A stretch of DNA of 64,000 nt from a bacterium (GCA_965218885.1 OZ244713.1:3128638-3192637), one strand, 5' to 3'; shown: positions 6,884-39,445, numbered from the stretch's first letter. Made by a program: numbers and translations. Notes: a model not told the origin generated them from the sequence alone.

Positions 6884-7738
6884 ATGATGTTTTATCTGAC
6901 CTTGCGAAGCGGTCTGGTGGTTTTCATGATCATCTTCGCGATCTTCCTGCATTCGAGTTTCGCATGGTCTGCTCAGGTCAGCGTGGATTTGGAACTTGTA
7001 CTGGCCGTCGATGTTTCCGGCAGTGTGGATGAAGTAGAGGGGAAGCTACAGCGGATGGGATATGTGAAAGCCTTTCGCTCCCCGTCTGTTTTGCGCGCCA
7101 TCCAATCGGGAAGACACAAAAGCATTGCGGTCACTTACATGGAGTGGGCCGGTTTCGATACCCAGCGAGTCGTGGTGGGCTGGAAACAGATTCACGATGA
7201 GGCGAGTGCTGAGGAGTTCGCCTCCCTGCTCTCCCGCGAACCAATAGGGGTGGGTCCCTACACATCTATCAGCGGCGCGATTGAATTCGCGCTGCCGATG
7301 TTCGAGAACAACGGATTCACGAGCGAGCGTCGCGTTATCGACATTTCCGGCGATGGCCCGAACAACAGCGGAGACTACGTGACCAATGCGCGGGAGAGGG
7401 CTATACGGGCCGGAGTGACGATAAATGGATTGCCGATTATAAATAACCGGCCGAGTCCCTGGGGAAGGATGCCGATGCCGAATCTGGATTTATATTACAG
7501 AAAATGCGTCATAGGGGGTAGGCGCTCTTTTTTGGTGGTCGCGAATGATTTCAAATCTTTCGGGCGCGCTATTCGTAGAAAACTGATTCTGGAGATTGTC
7601 GGCTTGCCGATGACGGAAAAATCGCGCCAGGCCCTTGACGTGCGAAAAGAAAAACGAACTCCTGTTTTGATCTCCAGAGTGGCGCCCCCATGTGATGCCG
7701 GCGAGAGGCGTCGTAGAAGCTGGTCGGAGGATTTTTAG
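6884..7738 (+). CDS. Secreted vWA-like protein (DUF1194-like)
   Basis: Signal peptide plus a MIDAS-like LAVDVSGSVD motif; 284 aa. Confidence 0.5.
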   Translation: MMFYLTLRSGLVVFMIIFAIFLHSSFAWSAQVSVDLELVLAVDVSGSVDEVEGKLQRMGYVKAFRSPSVLRAIQSGRHKSIAVTYMEWAGFDTQRVVVGWKQIHDEASAEEFASLLSREPIGVGPYTSISGAIEFALPMFENNGFTSERRVIDISGDGPNNSGDYVTNARERAIRAGVTINGLPIINNRPSPWGRMPMPNLDLYYRKCVIGGRRSFLVVANDFKSFGRAIRRKLILEIVGLPMTEKSRQALDVRKEKRTPVLISRVAPPCDAGERRRRSWSEDF

Positions 7739-11690: not shown

Positions 11691-11882
11691 ATTCTTTCAT
11701 ATTGAGAGACCCATCTTCGGTGTCGCGCATCGCCGAAGTCAAGAGTTACAGACAAACAATCTCTCGAATTGAAGATGCCGGGAATATGATAACCTGCCGG
11801 AAGTGATATGCTTGAACTTTTTCAGGTGGGAAGAGATTTTCCGCTTAGAATGCTCAGTGAAAGAAAGGGGTCCACGTTGAAA

Positions 11883-12905
11883 CGACGACCCGTAATTGCC
11901 ATGACCATGGGGGATCCGGCGGGAGTAGGGCCCGAGGTTTGCCTGAAAGCCGCTCTGGAGGCGAGCGTTCGGAAGAAATGCCTGCCCCTCATCGTGGGCG
12001 ACATGGCCATTATTCGCAAGCACGCCCGGAAGATGGAGATTCCGGCCCGACTGGAAGTGGTGAAGGATGAAGGAGCTCTTGCGCAATATCAAGAATCGGC
12101 CCTAACGCCAGTAATCGATCTAAAAAACGTCGCTCCCGAACACCGCGTATTCGGAAAAGTCATCCCCGAATTGGGCAAAGCGGCGGGCCGGTACATCGAA
12201 AAAGCCGTCTCGATGGTGCAGGCAGGCTGGGCGGACGCCGTTGCGACTGCGCCAATCAACAAGGAATCCTTACAAACCGGAGGGTATGATTACCCGGGAC
12301 ATACCGAAATGCTCGCCGCTCTGTGCGGAAAAGGGCGGCCCGTCATGATGCTGGCGCACCGCAAGATACGCATCGCGCACTTATCGACCCATTGTTCTCT
12401 CCGGGTGGCGCTCAGGCGCGTCAAGAGAAAGAGAATCGTCTACGTGGCTCAGGTTTTGAACGACGCCCTGCGCCTGTTGGACCGGAAAAAACCCAGAATC
12501 GGCGTCGCGGGTCTCAATCCCCATGCGGGCGAGGCCGGGCTGTTCGGCAGGGAGGAGGTGGAGGAAATCGCGCCCGCGGTCTCTGATTTGAGGGAGATGG
12601 GCATTGATGCGCACGGGCCCGAGCCGCCGGACACGATTTTCGGCAAATTGCGCGGCGGCTACTACGGCGGCGTGGTGGCCATGTATCACGATCAGGGCCA
12701 TATACCGGGCAAGTTGATGTGCTTCCGCTTCGACTCCCGGGGGCAGGCGAGCGTTCGCGGCGTCAACGTGACGCTGGGCCTTCCCATCATCAGAACCTCG
12801 GTCGAGCACGGTACGGGCTACCCCATCGCCGGACGCGGCATTGCCGACCCATCCAGCATGGTCGATGCCCTCCTCCTCGCGGCTCGGATGTCCACAAATA
12901 GCTGA
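11883..12905 (+). CDS. pdxA: 4-hydroxythreonine-4-phosphate dehydrogenase, PdxA family
   Basis: VIAMTMGDPAGVGPE signature and a GLNPHAGE metal site. The ORF opens at 11808; the exact start is uncertain. Confidence 0.85.
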   Translation, partial: RRPVIAMTMGDPAGVGPEVCLKAALEASVRKKCLPLIVGDMAIIRKHARKMEIPARLEVVKDEGALAQYQESALTPVIDLKNVAPEHRVFGKVIPELGKAAGRYIEKAVSMVQAGWADAVATAPINKESLQTGGYDYPGHTEMLAALCGKGRPVMMLAHRKIRIAHLSTHCSLRVALRRVKRKRIVYVAQVLNDALRLLDRKKPRIGVAGLNPHAGEAGLFGREEVEEIAPAVSDLREMGIDAHGPEPPDTIFGKLRGGYYGGVVAMYHDQGHIPGKLMCFRFDSRGQASVRGVNVTLGLPIIRTSVEHGTGYPIAGRGIADPSSMVDALLLAARMSTNS

Positions 12906-13188
12906 TAATAAAAGAGATATCAGTTTACTTTCCATTCATTTTTTTATCGAAAAACCCCGTGAATTTATCTAATTTTATCGATATTTATCGAAATTTTCAT
13001 CAATTCAATTTTCCCGCTGTTTAGAAACGCGCCCCCCTCCCGCGCGGGAGCGCAAGGGCGTGAACATAGCGCATGGGCCGGAGCGGGGCACATCGCAAAT
13101 TCGGGGGAATGCGGGAGGATTCACTACACCTTATTCGGAGTGGCGAAATGCAGAACCAGCATGTGGCAGTGAGTTTTTCCCCTGGTGA
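12906..13188. promoter_or_regulatory. Convergent intergenic region with an AT-rich TTTATCGA(A/T)A motif cluster and a GC palindrome
   Basis: tttttatcgaaaaa, ttttatcgatattt and tttatcgaaatttt at 12935-12990. Palindrome gcgctcccgcgcgggagcgc at about 13030-13055. Confidence 0.4.
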
Positions 13189-15519
13189 TCAAGAAATCCC
13201 ATTAACACCCTTCGCCGCTTTTTCCTCGATGCGTTCAAGGATATCCGCAGCCACTTCGAGCACTTCCGCCGGTGCGCGGACCGCCTCACCGGCATATTGA
13301 CGCAGAGCGACTATAAGTGGCGCCAGCGCGCTGGATTTTTCCTCGTCGCTCGTGAGAATTTCGACAAGTTCATTCGCCGATGCGCCTGATGTGACTAAAT
13401 CCGGCGCAACCCACAGCATCTCTTGCATCATTTTATCGTTATCGGGCCTAAATACGTCATACGCTGAGGTGAATGCGTCCATGGCGACTTGATGCTTTCC
13501 TTTTGCCAGAAACGCCATGGCTCGCGTGTACATCACTCGCCATCTAAACTTTATTTCTTCTTCTCCGGTCAAAAATGTCCCGAGTCTTCGTTCGAGTGCT
13601 TCACAAGTTTGCAAAGCTTCATCAGGACGACAAATCTTGATTTGTTTCATGCTTTTGTTGAGTAACGCTGTAGCAACCCACCACTGGATATCCGGCGCAT
13701 TGTTGTTTGCAAAACGCCTGACGACTTCTTCGTAGGTGATAATCGCCGCTTCGAAATCCCCGAGTTCTTCTAGGGCGTTTCCCTTGTGAACCAACGTCAT
13801 AACGACACATTGCTGGACTTCCGGTACGTTGCTGTCACCAAAGCGAACGACCAACTCATCGTAAGTCGCAATCGCCCCTTCGCAATCGCCAAGTTCTCTT
13901 CGCACATCCCCCTTGTAGATTAACGCGGCAGCGATCCACGACTGGATCTCAGACTCGTCACTGTCGCCAAAGCGATCAAGTATCTCGTCGCAGGCTGCAA
14001 TGGCCGTCTTGAAATCACCGAGTCCGAGATATGCGAGGACCTTCGAAAGCCACAGAAATGCCTCATCTGATTCCGATAATTCGGACGAACCCGCATTCGA
14101 CGATTCAGATGAACTTGCAGACAGAGAAGAGAGTGTCTGGTCCGCTATCTCGATGACTCTTTCGAATTCTTTTTCCTTAAGCGCAAAGTTGATTTCTTTG
14201 AGTGCTGTGTTGATTTTTTCAAGTGCTGCATGAGTTTCTTTTTTTGTTTTTATAAGGTGGTGGAGAGCACGCTCCATTCCCTCACGAAGAACCGGTGACT
14301 CCGCCGCCTCTTGCATCAGCTTATGGAACATCTCTTCCTGTTCCTTTTCGTTGTAGAACACCACCATGAAGCGGATCAGATTTTCCACAATAGCCGCCTC
14401 GTCGCGTTCCCGCCGCAGTTTGTAGTAGATGCTGTAGAGGCGTTCGGCGGCGGTGTACAGGCGCTTCCTGCCGCTCCCCTCGGCGATCACCGCGCCCCGC
14501 TCGACCAGCCGACCGAGCATGGTCGATACGGTTCGAACGTCCATACGGGCGCGCGCTGCTATCTCAGCGGTGCTCGATGGTTGCCAGAGGTCGATCGCGG
14601 CGAGATAGACGCGGCGTTCGGTCTTGGCCAAGACCTCCAGATGGCTACGAAAATACTCGGTGTGTTCGTCGATTAGCGTCACCAACTCTTCCATCAGTTG
14701 GCGCAGGGAGTGGTGTTGCGCGAACCCGGCGACGATGACGAGGAGGCGGGGGCTGCCGCCTGTCAATATCTGAAGCGGTCTGATCTCGCGCCCGCTCACT
14801 ACATCGCCACTGACTACTTCCCAAAGGCGGCGGCATTCTTCGGTGGTCAGCGGTTCCAGGCCGATGATTCGGAACAACTCGAAGAATGGTTGGTTTACGT
14901 CATCCAGACTCTCGAAACGACTGGTGGCGGAGGCGAGCAGCATTATCTGAGGTTCTGATTGCAACACCCCGCGAAGCTTCCAGCCGAAATCCGCATCCAC
15001 GCTCTCACAAAGGGCTTGTAAGTTCTCGACCATGAGTACGAGTTTACGGTCCAATCGGTCCGCCGCCGCGAGAACGGCGGCGCGGGCATGAACCTCCAGT
15101 GACTGCTCGCGCCAGCGGGTGGACAGGTCGGCGTGCGTTTCTCGTAACTCGCTTGCAAGTTCGGGATCGTGGGCGGCGCTCTCTCTGGCGAGATGGAACA
15201 GCGTTTCGAGCCAGAAGTCGGCGATGTTGAAAATCTCCTGGCTCTCTTCCATGAAACGGACCGGCAATAGGCGTCTAGCGAGTTCGTCATCGGTGCATAT
15301 TTCCGCGGCGGCTCGGGCCAGAAGCATGGTTTTTCCCCGACCGCGAGGGGCGACGACCAGGATGTGCTGGCACGAAGGTGACTCGATGTTCCCGCGCAGC
15401 ACCTCGATCACGATGCCGAATTCATGTTTTCGGACGACGAACTGCTCTATTACCTCTTCGTCGGACTGGAATGTCCCCGGATTGAACTTGCGGATCTGCC
15501 GAGTGGATAATTCGTTCAT
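13189..15519 (-). CDS. STAND-like P-loop NTPase with winged-helix and C-terminal TPR array (776 aa)
   Basis: Walker A VVAPRGRGKTMLLA and Walker B LVLMVENLQ. MarR-like wHTH (RVYLAAIDLWQPSSTAEIAARARMDVRTVSTMLGRLVERG). A TPR-like array with (GDxxxAIxxYDE) periodicity. Confidence 0.7.
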   Translation of the reverse strand: MNELSTRQIRKFNPGTFQSDEEVIEQFVVRKHEFGIVIEVLRGNIESPSCQHILVVAPRGRGKTMLLARAAAEICTDDELARRLLPVRFMEESQEIFNIADFWLETLFHLARESAAHDPELASELRETHADLSTRWREQSLEVHARAAVLAAADRLDRKLVLMVENLQALCESVDADFGWKLRGVLQSEPQIMLLASATSRFESLDDVNQPFFELFRIIGLEPLTTEECRRLWEVVSGDVVSGREIRPLQILTGGSPRLLVIVAGFAQHHSLRQLMEELVTLIDEHTEYFRSHLEVLAKTERRVYLAAIDLWQPSSTAEIAARARMDVRTVSTMLGRLVERGAVIAEGSGRKRLYTAAERLYSIYYKLRRERDEAAIVENLIRFMVVFYNEKEQEEMFHKLMQEAAESPVLREGMERALHHLIKTKKETHAALEKINTALKEINFALKEKEFERVIEIADQTLSSLSASSSESSNAGSSELSESDEAFLWLSKVLAYLGLGDFKTAIAACDEILDRFGDSDESEIQSWIAAALIYKGDVRRELGDCEGAIATYDELVVRFGDSNVPEVQQCVVMTLVHKGNALEELGDFEAAIITYEEVVRRFANNNAPDIQWWVATALLNKSMKQIKICRPDEALQTCEALERRLGTFLTGEEEIKFRWRVMYTRAMAFLAKGKHQVAMDAFTSAYDVFRPDNDKMMQEMLWVAPDLVTSGASANELVEILTSDEEKSSALAPLIVALRQYAGEAVRAPAEVLEVAADILERIEEKAAKGVNGIS

Positions 15520-16760
15520 GGCGTCCGCTCCTGTGATTTGGCCTCAGAACGGCGCTTTTCAAGGGGGGTGTGGTGGTCGCGGAAACGCGCCGACCACCAG
15601 TCCTTGAGCAAGCGTGACGGGAAGCGATGGTCATTATCACCGGCTTCGAGATAGCCGTCGTGCACCAGGACTTCGAGAGCGTCGGAAATGCGGCTGGCTG
15701 CGTCGTCAGTCACCTTGGAATACAAGCGTTCGAGACAGCGTTGCGCGGCTGGCGTGAACACCTCCTGTGTCGCCGCCTCCGCGAGAATCTCCATGGCGAT
15801 AGAGAAGCTCTCGTCCTCGAGTCCTTCTTTGAGGCGTGTCTCGTAGTGGACGAGATCGTTTTGCCCCGAGGGCCCTAATAGCGCGGTGCGATAGACATCG
15901 TCGACATCTTCCACGGTCACTCGGTCCTGCCCCTGCATCATGGCGAAATCCCGGAGGCGCGCAAAGAAGGACTGTACGTGATGCGGAATGCCGACACCGA
16001 GTGCTTCGTACACCGCGTTCGCCACGCTGTCCTCCACACGCAACCCATGGCTCTTTGCGAGAAGGTCGAAGCACTCAACGCTAGTGTCGCGACTCCACGG
16101 ACCCAGGCGAAAGGGATAGAGATGGTTGATGCGGTCGGGAATGCCGAGTCTGCGCATGAGAGGTTCCAGCCCGAGGCTACCCGATAACATGAGAACCGGG
16201 GAATCATCTCCCAGCGCCTGAAGCACGCCACGCAGCCAACTCATGAACTCGTCCACCCGTCGTGCGTCGCCGTCTTGGAGGAACATACGCTTAAGAAAGA
16301 TCGGCAACTCGTCGATGACGAGGAGAACCGGCTTGTCATACTCGGCGCAATCGCGGAGCAGTCGCTCACCGTGACGTCTCCAACTACCGGCATCCAGCCC
16401 GGCGCGGATCTTCACACCAAATTCAAGCGCGTTGATCTCCTCGATGTTGTCAGTAAACCAGCGCCCCGCCCAAGCGGTGAAACGCGAAGAGAGCGCGCGA
16501 ACCGGATGCGCGGCCTGTGCGATTTCGGCGATTACGTCCTCCGGGCAGGTCGCGCCCTCGACGTCGGTGAAGAGGAAAACCCATCCCTCGGCCTCAAGCC
16601 GTCGCCCGAGTTCTCTAAGAATGCTGGTCTTCCCCATACGCCGTTGCCCGGTCAACAACATATGGTTGTGGTCGCGCACTTGTGCTTCCAGTATCCGCAA
16701 CTCGGATTCCCGATCGAAAAAATCGTCGCCGCTCACCCAACGGCCAGTTGATGATTTCAT
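15516..16760 (-). CDS. AAA+ ATPase of the Arch_ATPase/DUF234-like family (414 aa)
   Basis: Walker A LLTGQRRMGKTS and Walker B LLVIDELP. RBS AAGGAAAG before the ATG at 16760 (MKSSTGRW). Its stop overlaps the start of the downstream NTPase gene (ATGA). Confidence 0.7.
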   Translation of the reverse strand: MKSSTGRWVSGDDFFDRESELRILEAQVRDHNHMLLTGQRRMGKTSILRELGRRLEAEGWVFLFTDVEGATCPEDVIAEIAQAAHPVRALSSRFTAWAGRWFTDNIEEINALEFGVKIRAGLDAGSWRRHGERLLRDCAEYDKPVLLVIDELPIFLKRMFLQDGDARRVDEFMSWLRGVLQALGDDSPVLMLSGSLGLEPLMRRLGIPDRINHLYPFRLGPWSRDTSVECFDLLAKSHGLRVEDSVANAVYEALGVGIPHHVQSFFARLRDFAMMQGQDRVTVEDVDDVYRTALLGPSGQNDLVHYETRLKEGLEDESFSIAMEILAEAATQEVFTPAAQRCLERLYSKVTDDAASRISDALEVLVHDGYLEAGDNDHRFPSRLLKDWWSARFRDHHTPLEKRRSEAKSQERTP

Positions 16761-16808
16761 GTTCTTTCCTTTATGTAATATTCTCCTGCCAGTCAACAAA
16801 TCTGTTGA

Positions 16809-16854
16809 ATTTAATCATGCAACAAGAATGTTGTCAACTATTTTGTTGACAACA
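16809..16854 (-). promoter_or_regulatory. Promoter (TTGACA-17-TTAAAT) embedded in a perfect 10-bp inverted repeat (TGTTGTCAAC-6-GTTGACAACA); candidate operator
   Basis: On the minus strand, the -35 TTGACA lies inside the palindrome at 16829-16854 and the -10 TTAAAT at 16809-16814. A second inverted repeat TCAACAaatcTGTTGA lies at 16793-16808. Confidence 0.5.
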
Positions 16855-16965
16855 AAATAGTTTTTATATGGATTGTCTATTTCTGTGTGAATTCTTAAGA
16901 TGCCGCATCACGATATTTTGATGACCAAACCAGCAGAGACTGATCACGCTACTTCAATACACCCC

Positions 16966-17721
16966 TCACGATCTACAGATGGTGAGCAGGTGCACCGCTT
17001 CGGCGCCCGCTTTCTTGAGTTCCCGGGCGCAGGCCGAGGCGGTCGAGCCGGTCGTGACGACGTCGTCGACGAGGATGCACGTGGCCGCCTCGAGTTCCCG
17101 GCGCTCCCGGTTTGCGCGGACTCTGAAGACGCCCCGCATGTTGCGGCGTCGTTCCCTCCCGGATAGTCCCGTCTGCGAGCGGGTTTCCTTCGCGCGCTCG
17201 AGACAATCCGCGTGGGGCACGCCCAAACAATCCGCCGTCCTGAGGGCGAGCAGCATCGCCTGGTCGAAACCTCTGGTTCTCCAGCGGACGGGGTCGATGG
17301 GCACGTGCGTCAAAAGCACCTTTCGGGCGTCTTCACCCGCCCCGAATTCATCCGCCGCGAGCTTGGCGAGATGGGGCGCGAACTCGCGCGCCAGCTTCGT
17401 GAAGCCCTGGAACTTGAAGAGGTGGACCGATTCCCGCAGCGAGCCCTCATACGCGCCGATGGCGCGGGCCAAGTCGTAATGATGCCCATTTTCCAGGCAA
17501 TCCGAACAGACGTGGGCCGGGGAATGGGCGAGGGTGGTTAGGGAGTGAAAAGGATTCCCGCACCTGGGACACCAGGGCGGCTCGAAGCGCTCGAAGGCTT
17601 CGGTGCAGGGCGCGCATATCGCATGGGGGTCGCCGATTTGCATGGAAGCCGAACACAAAAGGCACTTCGGGGGGATGAGGAAATCCGTCGCTGCGCCGAT
17701 GAGCCTGCGGAGATAACCCAT
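16966..17721 (-). CDS. comF: ComF-family protein (phosphoribosyltransferase domain)
   Basis: N-terminal Cys4 (CLLC...CAPC, CPRC) and a C-terminal PRTase motif ILVDDVVTTGSTA. Confidence 0.8.
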   Translation of the reverse strand: MGYLRRLIGAATDFLIPPKCLLCSASMQIGDPHAICAPCTEAFERFEPPWCPRCGNPFHSLTTLAHSPAHVCSDCLENGHHYDLARAIGAYEGSLRESVHLFKFQGFTKLAREFAPHLAKLAADEFGAGEDARKVLLTHVPIDPVRWRTRGFDQAMLLALRTADCLGVPHADCLERAKETRSQTGLSGRERRRNMRGVFRVRANRERRELEAATCILVDDVVTTGSTASACARELKKAGAEAVHLLTICRS

Positions 17722-39229: not shown

Positions 39230-39348
39230 TTTCCCTCTTGCTCTTTAAGGGAAAGACTGTTAGTTTTATCGAAATGGCCCGGCTGGATGCTGCGCCGGGT
39301 GGAAATGACATGGTGACATAGAAATTCCCCTTTAATGTCGTCCCGTGA

Positions 39349-39373
39349 GGCGGCGAAGGAGGAAACCCGGATG
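39349..39373 (+). promoter_or_regulatory. PyrR-binding loop in the pyr leader (UCCCGUGAGGCGGCGAAGGAGG)
   Basis: Matches the PyrR anti-antiterminator consensus UCCNGNGAGGC...GAAGGA. Lies immediately 5' of a terminator and pyrR. Confidence 0.7.
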
Positions 39374-39408
39374 CTTGCCGTCCTCTCGTCTGTTCTTAGA
39401 ACTCCATG

Positions 39409-39445
39409 CCCTTTGGGCATGGAGTTTTTTTTGTTCTTTTTTGAT
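39409..39445 (+). terminator. pyr operon attenuator terminator (gaactccatgccc-ttt-gggcatggagtt plus T run)
   Basis: 12-bp perfect stem followed by TTTTTTTTGTTCTTTTTT, 35 nt before pyrR. Confidence 0.8.

Follow-up and report, generated by a model that had tools for sequence, protein, structure and literature searches.

ATPases of the ORC/Cdc6-like kind that carry a winged helix-turn-helix (wHTH) are recurrent cores of BREX-type defence systems, and more than one ORC/Cdc6-like nucleoside triphosphatase (NTPase) can occur in a single system of this type (PMC12839542). The present study concerns two NTPase genes, here called A and B, in a 64,000-nucleotide stretch of a bacterial genome (GCA_965218885.1 OZ244713.1:3128638-3192637; hereafter the window). 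A preliminary description of the window, made from its sequence, had singled out these two ATPase genes as a module under a palindrome-embedded promoter that could not be assigned to a named system. Our analysis confirms the module and bears out this description in its structural statements and, in essence, in its interpretation. It places the A-B module within a known kind, the STAND/ORC-like NTPase switches with tetratricopeptide repeat (TPR) sensors, as an unnamed variant in which two NTPases without an effector are joined to a portable operator of several palindromes and which is spread over many phyla, sponge symbionts included. The reading that we favour, held tentatively and with slightly less than even confidence, is that A-B is most likely an autorepressed, horizontally mobile sensor/partner NTPase switch and probably a conflict (defence-type) system.

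Several described systems resemble A-B in part. The BREX-type proteins BrxC, BrxD and BrxB share a broad NTPase clade and an adjoining wHTH with A and B, but A-B comes without PglZ, a methyltransferase or other BREX genes and has no PADLOC BREX match; by this analogy BREX may be regarded as a precedent for A-B rather than as a system to which it would belong. Avs proteins are usually encoded by one gene and have an effector domain, such as a nuclease, protease or SIR2 domain, at the N-terminus. Avs/AVAST systems share with B an NTPase joined to a C-terminal TPR-type sensor, horizontal spread and variable sensor regions, whereas A-B has two NTPase genes, no effector and no PADLOC Avs match. A likeness of logic only is to the paired sensor/helper nucleotide-binding leucine-rich repeat receptors (NLRs), such as the plant RGA5/RGA4-type pairs and animal NAIP-NLRC4, in which adjacent related genes with a nucleotide-binding oligomerization domain (NOD) encode one sensor with variable repeats and one minimal protein. 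As at loci with a second B gene (A-B-B′, below), several sensor paralogues of paired NLRs can go with one partner, although A-B lacks the death-fold or TIR/coiled-coil signalling domains. Considered singly, B has the part order of PH0952 (PDB 6mfv) and MalT, namely a P-loop NTPase, a helical domain with the GxP motif that is a STAND hallmark, a winged helix and a C-terminal TPR array; unlike them, it has an hhhhEN Walker B, lacks a LuxR-type DNA-binding effector and is always paired with a second NTPase gene. A shares its whole-chain fold with PAB2304 (2qen) and SSO1545 (2fna), together with an FFDRExEL motif ahead of Walker A, a GIP motif and a C-terminal winged-helix-type domain, but at a sequence identity of only 17-20%, and these two proteins, unlike A, have no described TPR-NTPase partner; they have no assigned function. 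The pair was not described in the literature that we found on PF01637/COG1672 and defence, on AAA_16 with TPR and anti-phage activity, or on sponges and STAND proteins.

The two genes form a conserved unit. A genome scan with A returned 80 loci. By tblastn, a B homologue lies directly after A in all 81 loci with room for one (L001 and L002 included). The genes are co-oriented and adjacent in every locus, with a 4-nucleotide overlap in 27 of 79 and a separation of 5-33 nucleotides in most of the others. All-against-all clustering of open reading frames (ORFs) recovered only A and B as common to all loci, along with ORF clusters inside them that we read as spurious; this clustering found no conserved third gene, and flanking genes were common to at most 8 loci. 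Over 3081 locus pairs, identity in A is correlated with identity in B residues 1-420 (r = 0.845), and the two genes thus co-diverge. With the plasmid-borne pairs of 20-24% identity described below, conservation of the pair as a unit is borne out, and searches of Pfam, PADLOC and NCBIfam placed neither protein in a characterised housekeeping family; neither outcome that the preliminary description had named as refuting its reading was observed.

Carriers of the module include Nitrospinota, Nitrospirota (Nitrospirales), Latescibacterota, Acidobacteriota (Vicinamibacterales, Bryobacterales), Alpha- and Gammaproteobacteria, Gemmatimonadota, Spirochaetota (Spirochaetia), Chloroflexota (Caldilineaceae), Thermodesulfobacteriota and Binatia, and the pair was also found in Thiorhodococcus. 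Over at least 10 phyla the identity of A is 63-88%, and the cassette is horizontally mobile among them. Its GC content follows that of the host (r = 0.72). For several carrier metagenome-assembled genomes (MAGs) a sponge-symbiont origin is documented: Aplysina aerophoba is the source of the APA_ bins and Ircinia ramosa that of the SB06xx bins (PMC11706023). One European Nucleotide Archive sample, ERZ18545484, contains the cassette in two genomes, L167 and L170 (a 2.35-Mb Nitrospirales MAG and a 5.18-Mb MAG), in each case amid unrelated housekeeping genes, a pattern that fits transfer inside a single community. In the lineage of the window (L003-L006 and L023, labelled Nitrospinota, Nitrospinaceae or "bacterium"), the module occupies the same site between comF and pdxA. 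For an empty comF-pdxA site, a metagenome scan with PdxA gave one moderately close contig (L087, 64% identity), in which pdxA is adjoined by neither comF nor the module.

The promoter-operator region moves with A-B across phyla. The -35 box had been described as lying inside a perfect 10-bp inverted repeat that suggests tight repression; this repeat is confirmed (Table 1) and proves to be one element of a multi-site, operator-like array that is conserved across phyla. Three further dyads accompany it, namely a 13-nucleotide dyad, CAACA-N4-TGTTG and TCAACA-N4-TGTTGA, the first of which exceeds in length every other perfect inverted repeat with separate arms that was listed for the 64 kb. The window holds 75 short inverted-repeat pairs, and a single 10-bp repeat is not improbable alone; it is the comparative conservation upstream of A that sets the palindrome beyond chance. 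In 70 of 83 loci, the 130 nucleotides upstream of A contain the sequence GTTGACAAC or its complement, at a density of 8.8 per kb there against 0.006 per kb (8 sites) in about 1.3 Mb of flanks, an approximately 1400-fold difference, and elsewhere in the 64-kb window there is none, the exact 9-mer being confined to the palindrome. Likewise, CAACA-N4-6-TGTTG is found upstream of A in 44 of 83 loci, as against 3 matches elsewhere, and GTTG/CAAC half-sites occur nearly everywhere in the 125 nucleotides upstream of A across all loci. Anchored on the -35 box, the consensus reads tttaCAACaaaat.GTTG-A-CAACaaaaTTGTTG..tat, which amounts to two 14-bp CAAC-N6-GTTG palindromes placed 15 bp apart, with TTGACA spelled at their junction. 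The arrangement GTTGAC-N16-18-TAnnnT, with the -10 box 16-18 nucleotides 3′ of the -35 box, is present in 58 of the 83 loci, and many loci, the window included, have an extra TCAAC-N6-GTTGA site between the -10 box and the ribosome-binding site. In the window locus the palindrome stretch has a GC content of 35%.

More distant relatives extend the pairing to plasmids. A tblastn search of plasmids gave seven full-length relatives of A at 20-24% identity, and in all four of the loci that were opened an overlapping gene lies 3′ of the A relative. The Clostridium estertheticum partner is a 943-residue TPR protein that aligns with B residues 11-557 (E = 2e-23) through the VENLQ, GSPRL and wHTH motifs; the Segatella copri partner is a 298-residue NTPase-wHTH protein without TPRs, and the partners in Moraxella osloensis and C. 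tagluense have 699 and 530 residues. By these divergent sequences, the A-B unit is old. On the M. osloensis plasmid pNP7-2 (L085, locus 6911-6991), three near-identical 22-bp palindromes, TTAACTATAAAATTATAGTTAA (AACTATA-N4-TATAGTT), follow one another at an exact 27-bp spacing and finish 7 nucleotides short of where the distant A homologue starts. The same position holds two TTGACAAAA...TTTTGTCAA sites in C. tagluense and three repeats each, at 17 and 16 bp, in C. estertheticum and Segatella. The plasmid arrays thus differ in sequence and share their place 5′ of the A relative, although the AT-rich palindromes other than that of Moraxella could be partly compositional. Three of the four distant pairs lie amid defence or mobile-element genes: a Qat system, a protein kinase, transposases and an N6 DNA methylase in Moraxella; WYL, DUF262 and insertion sequence elements in Segatella; and DUF3800, a GIY-YIG nuclease and an integrase in C. 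estertheticum. Against PADLOC and NCBIfam, the four pairs themselves gave sub-threshold P-loop or wHTH matches only.

For A, the structural evidence agrees with the Arch_ATPase-type AAA+ protein that had been proposed for the 414-residue product. A matches AAA_16 and AAA_22 in Pfam, with ATPase_2/PF01637 below threshold (23.5 bits, E = 5.7e-5, under the gathering cut-off of 33.2); precomputed Pfam assigns PF01637 to many close A homologues, and a distant homologue on pCF003-70 exceeds the cut-off with 34.5 bits. A profile of 55 A homologues found PDB 2qen (Pyrococcus Walker-type ATPase, E = 2e-4) and 2fna. The AlphaFold2 (AF2) model of A has a mean predicted local distance difference test (pLDDT) score of 84.6 and a predicted template-modelling (TM) score of 0.82, and in Foldseek its best matches are again 2qen (E = 6e-10, TM 0.61/0.71) and 2fna (E = 1e-8, TM 0.56/0.64), followed at ranks 3-9 by Orc1/Cdc6 structures, those of archaea first; eukaryotic ORC subunits and RuvB were also matched. 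From this model, A is predicted to be an AAA+ protein with the fold of the PF01637 "archaeal" ATPases and Orc1/Cdc6. In the few records that name it, A is called "ATP-binding protein".

The 776-residue product, B, had been described as a Walker-type NTPase with a MarR-like winged helix and a long TPR array, and profile matches together with 6mfv as the top PDB match uphold that architecture. TPR_6, TPR_16 and TPR_12 exceed the Pfam cut-offs in B, and the AF2 model is confident only from residue ~480 on, where it has five helix pairs of ~43 residues (pLDDT ~90) and a helical cap. The wHTH gives sub-threshold matches to Penicillinase_R, TrmB, MarR, ArsR and DUF7342, has a likeness to CopY and is weakly similar to the Csa3/CasR wHTH; R323, R329, S332, T333, R337 and R341 are invariant. 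Since AF2 is unreliable for the N-terminus of B, its fold class rests on hidden Markov model matches in the wider family. Among 43 distant members (~45-52% identity to the query), Pfam identified AAA_16 in 41, TrmB in 26 (E-values down to 7e-10), ORC-CDC6-like in 22, ATPase_2 in 14, nSTAND5 in 12, NACHT in 6 and TPR families in about 22. The B-type NTPase family as a whole comprises 4137 clusters at 50% identity (E ≤ 1e-3), 1091 of them at E ≤ 1e-30, and the few source records call B "tetratricopeptide repeat protein", "ATP-binding protein" or "hypothetical protein". BLASTP and hhalign find only weak similarity between A and B, around the pre-Walker-A motif and the P-loop, which rules out recent paralogy. 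By sequence, both appear to be NTPase-wHTH proteins of the ORC/Cdc6-STAND class that are only remotely related to each other.

Substitution patterns separate the constant from the variable parts of the module. Ratios of nonsynonymous to synonymous substitution rates (dN/dS) were calculated by NG86 for the syntenic lineage of the window, and gave 0.15 for A, 0.12 for B residues 1-420, 0.33 for the linker (residues 421-480), 0.29 for the TPR region and 0.27 for the C-terminal cap, as compared with 0.09-0.18 for the flanking xdhC, comF, pdxA and 178-residue genes. Both genes are under purifying selection, and the values therefore indicate that both are functional. In the same lineage, amino-acid identity is 55% in the TPR region versus 86% in the N-terminus of B, and dN is 0.31 versus 0.08; dS is inflated in the TPR region too, which may reflect repeat shuffling or misaligned repeats. 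B is 776-1322 residues long among the listed homologues and 508-1741 among ORFs in intact fetched loci, the longest, in L020 (Gammaproteobacteria MAG OY282353.1, 9261 onward), being over twice the length of the B in the window. Short forms of ~510-585 residues without a TPR array occur in L008, L010, L012, L030, L037 and L040, and some of these retain the N-terminal module and the C-terminal cap. The repeat region of B is thus highly plastic, varies in copy number and is the fastest-evolving part of the protein. Tandem Repeats Finder detected no DNA-level tandem repeats in the TPR region, indicating that there was no very recent repeat expansion in this genome. In six Latescibacterota loci (L001, L002, L011, L017, L019 and L061), a second full-length B gene (B′), ~54-57% identical to the B of the window, lies 3′ of A-B; in the last four of these, B′ has a separate promoter that contains two TCAAC-N6-GTTGA palindromes. 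L001 and L002 have small XRE-family (HTH_3) genes 5′ of A, and in L001 there is another between the two B genes.

These observations can be drawn together in a working model, whose steps we hold with confidence that falls from autorepression, through the roles of B as sensor and A as partner, to their co-assembly and lastly to a role in conflict. A winged helix encoded by the module, most likely the MarR/TrmB-like wHTH of B, would bind the palindromes and repress the operon. The palindromes are tied to the module rather than to a host factor because B′ promoters carry copies of them and the plasmid pairs carry arrays of their own, and because no other gene is conserved that could encode a binder; the wHTH of B is most likely the operator-binding domain, being the best candidate for it. 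Autorepression of this kind would hold the cassette at a low, fixed level in any host. B would act as the sensor, its variable TPR array binding a ligand, probably a protein, and its Walker B motif (hhhhEN as against the canonical hhhhD[DE], as read from motif alignment only) suggests a switch that hydrolyses slowly. Activated B may then assemble with A, whose canonical Walker B and Orc1/Cdc6-like fold would suit an ATP-hydrolysing partner or executor, possibly one that acts on DNA. The logic would be like that of paired sensor/helper NLRs, with the extra B paralogues, four of them under the same type of operator, perhaps widening the sensing range. The role would most likely lie in inter-genomic conflict, as a defence against phages or other mobile elements.

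A number of results weigh against this reading. A and B had no significant match in PADLOC 2.0, where the best hits covered the P-loop or the wHTH only at E = 6e-4 or weaker, and their NCBIfam 20.0 scores were far under the cut-offs. With such sub-threshold matches only, identity of the pair with a named system of either collection is ruled out; the preliminary description had likewise been unable to assign the pairing with a second ATPase. The Pfam scan revealed no effector domain in A or B (no nuclease, protease or NADase), and no N-terminal effector fusion was seen among the 150 best representatives of the B family, in all but two of which the match starts within about 30 residues of the N-terminus. 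The pair was found neither in phage records (tblastn) nor in IMG/VR viral contigs (pattern scan), and the idea of a phage-borne cassette was dropped for this reason. Scanned with Pfam and PADLOC, most of the 125 non-redundant ORFs nearest to close homologues proved to be metabolic or housekeeping genes, for example AcrB, PdxA, adenosine deaminase, guanylate kinase and ComEC, and only a small number were integrases, transposases, a relaxase, a type I restriction enzyme or members of PADLOC candidate families; neighbour ORFs were called by a crude longest-ORF rule, and some calls may be wrong. Three annotated-context look-ups were likewise heterogeneous and mostly housekeeping. Residence in defence islands, where the preliminary description had proposed to look for the pair, is accordingly unsupported for the close, sponge-type homologues, with their housekeeping contexts, whereas three of the four distant plasmid pairs lie amid defence or mobile-element genes. 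With a mean dN/dS below 1, the TPR region gives no demonstration of positive selection. In the N-terminus of B the AF2 model is poor (pLDDT 30-50 for residues 170-360, the NTPase/wHTH region), and the best PDB match, the Pyrococcus STAND-TPR protein 6mfv, has E = 1e-5 but a TM score of 0.27-0.32, low because of that poor N-terminal model; the interpretation of the Walker B motif of B depends on motif alignment alone. Finally, the gene next to the operator is a divergent XRE-family gene in the Latescibacterota loci and a WYL gene in Segatella, and either could be the binder there.

Other accounts of the module must be set beside the autorepressed conflict switch. One is a bolder form of it, an effector-less immune or conflict system of the paired-NLR type in which a hydrolysis-impaired TPR sensor, B, present at times as several paralogues, recruits the minimal partner A to act directly on DNA (for example by blocking invader replication or transcription), and in which the whole unit is silenced by its own winged helix on a portable operator and has recently swept horizontally through a consortium of marine sponge symbionts from many phyla; taken with all these particulars, it seems to us doubtful. 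A regulator of the MalT/PH0952 type is unlikely as well. On this account B, helped by A, would sense a metabolite or protein through its TPRs and control host genes in trans by its winged helix, with autoregulation a mere by-product and no conflict function. In favour of this, B is arranged NOD-wHTH-TPR like the STAND regulators of the MalT clade and has 6mfv as its best PDB match, its wHTH resembles the sequence-specific regulators TrmB, MarR, BlaI, CopY and ArsR, the neighbours are mostly housekeeping genes and there is no effector domain. A host-specific regulon is nevertheless hard to square with the distribution, the TPR copy-number variation and the extra B paralogues. The spread is horizontal, over at least 10 phyla and with no conserved neighbours, and the only conserved target is the module's own promoter, GTTGACAAC being at chance level elsewhere.

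The same operator layout recalls toxin-antitoxin operons, of which a compact two-gene operon with overlapping genes and a multi-palindrome layout suited to autorepression is typical, and the cassette is horizontally mobile, occurs on plasmids and sometimes has PIN and ParE modules adjacent. A selfish addiction or exclusion module, in which one NTPase would be growth-inhibitory and the other neutralising and which would persist because its loss is harmful, is nonetheless a poor fit that we consider quite improbable: both proteins are large conserved NTPases without a recognisable toxin fold, a variable TPR sensor and extra B paralogues suggest ligand sensing, and in one lineage the locus is stably inherited at the same site. 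Repeats upstream of an ORC-like gene could also be iteron-like, as at archaeal orc1/cdc6 origins, Rep-iteron or ParB-parS loci, with A as initiator and B as regulator of a remnant replication or partition module. The resemblance of A to Orc1/Cdc6 bound to origin DNA (2v1u, 2qby), the repeated palindromes in an AT-rich stretch and the relatives on plasmids agree with this, but the repeats agree precisely with the layout of a promoter (-35 at the junction, N17, -10), A is closest in fold to two PF01637 proteins that are not initiators, 2qen and 2fna, and the cassette is a single chromosomal copy amid housekeeping genes, with no helicase, integrase or other element genes conserved nearby; we think it very unlikely. 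Least probable, to the point of being far-fetched, is a sponge-symbiont host-interaction factor, with B as a TPR "eukaryotic-like protein" acting on sponge cell proteins. Its hydrophilic N-terminus runs straight into the NTPase with no signal sequence apparent by inspection, the cassette is probably autoregulated and is cytoplasmic in character, and the pair is carried by Thiorhodococcus too and, in more divergent form, by plasmids of Clostridium, Segatella and Moraxella, even though several carrier MAGs are documented sponge symbionts and the taxa match typical sponge consortia.

Should the A-B pair prove to serve in defence or conflict, bacteria would gain a case of sensor-plus-helper NOD proteins that lack a classical effector, and one would have to ask how immunity is carried out by an ORC-like ATPase. 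A portable promoter-operator whose -35 box arises from a palindrome junction is a neat way to keep a transferred module regulated in any host, and could serve as a compact orthogonal regulatory part. The distribution of the cassette is also a concrete marker of gene flow within the sponge microbiome.

The features of the locus are collected in Table 1. The ORFs are as first described, with one change: from its TTG start, the ORF of A spans 15516..16799 (427 residues), but A homologues (73-92% identity) have ~414 residues and begin MKSSTGRW, and the start was therefore re-set to the ATG at 16760, which lies 6 nucleotides 3′ of AGGAAAG. The stop codon of A and the start codon of B share the ATGA at 15516-15519, and the comF-like and pdxA-like genes lie on either side; the description of two translationally coupled ATPase genes between housekeeping genes is thus correct.

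Table 1. Coordinates of the A-B module, its promoter region and adjacent elements in the window (ranges are window positions unless given as residues)
Feature	Position	Strand	Remarks
Gene A	15516..16760	minus	414 aa; PF01637/Orc1-Cdc6-like AAA+ ATPase (predicted)
A Walker A, GQRRMGKTS	residues 38-46		invariant columns, canonical
A Walker B, VLLVIDE	residues 145-151 (D150, E151)		invariant columns, canonical
A GIP motif	residues 257-259		
A winged-helix-like domain	C-terminal		
Gene B	13189..15519	minus	776 aa; STAND-like NTPase, wHTH, coiled coil, TPR-like repeats and C-terminal cap
B P-loop NTPase core	14785..15444	minus	~residues 26-245; AAA_16, AAA_35 and AAA_22 matches; strands in AF2 model
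B Walker A, APRGRGKT	residues 57-64		near-invariant
B Walker B, LVLMVEN	E165, N166		both invariant; non-canonical
B GGSPRL motif	residues 254-259		just downstream of the NTPase core span; invariant or near-invariant
B wHTH, MarR/TrmB/BlaI-like	14440..14628	minus	~residues 298-360
B TPR-like repeats	13450..14073	minus	residues ~483-690; ~five of ~43 aa
B helical C-terminal cap	13192..13422	minus	residues ~700-776; conserved, kept even in short B without TPR array
Sigma-70-type promoter of A	16808..16837	minus	-35 TTGACA 16837-16832; 17-nt spacer; -10 TTAAAT 16814-16809
10-bp perfect inverted repeat, TGTTGTCAAC-AAAATA-GTTGACAACA (N6)	16854-16829		-35 in right arm
13-nt perfect dyad, AACTATTTTGTTG-T-CAACAAAATAGTT	16862-16836		
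CAACA-N4-TGTTG	16833-16820		within promoter spacer
TCAACA-N4-TGTTGA	16808-16793		directly 3′ of -10, over expected transcription start
Overlapping palindrome block of GTTG/CAAC half-sites	16820..16862		-35 arises at junction GTTG-A-CAAC
comF-like phosphoribosyltransferase gene	16966-17721	minus	flanks module
pdxA-like gene	11808-12905	plus	convergent; flanks module
AT-rich repeat, AATTTATCGA x3.5	12962-12996		period 10
GC-rich hairpin, CTCCCGCGCGGGAG	~13037-13050		

The AT-rich motif cluster that had been placed next to the genes is real (AATTTATCGA x3.5) but is not part of the A-B module. It lies in the 283-bp spacer between the stop codons of B and pdxA (12906-13188), which has 89% identity to its counterpart in L003; only ~47 nucleotides separate the B stop codon from the end of pdxA in L004-L006 and L023, where the spacer element is absent. 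The AT-rich intergenic element had no match in Rfam. An opposite-strand ORF of 75 residues (13073-13300, plus strand), which runs across the conserved intergenic element and the 3′ terminus of B, is probably spurious. The only Rfam match in the window is a PyrR binding site (RF00515) at 39325-39434 on the plus strand, with 55.4 bits against a gathering score of 54.

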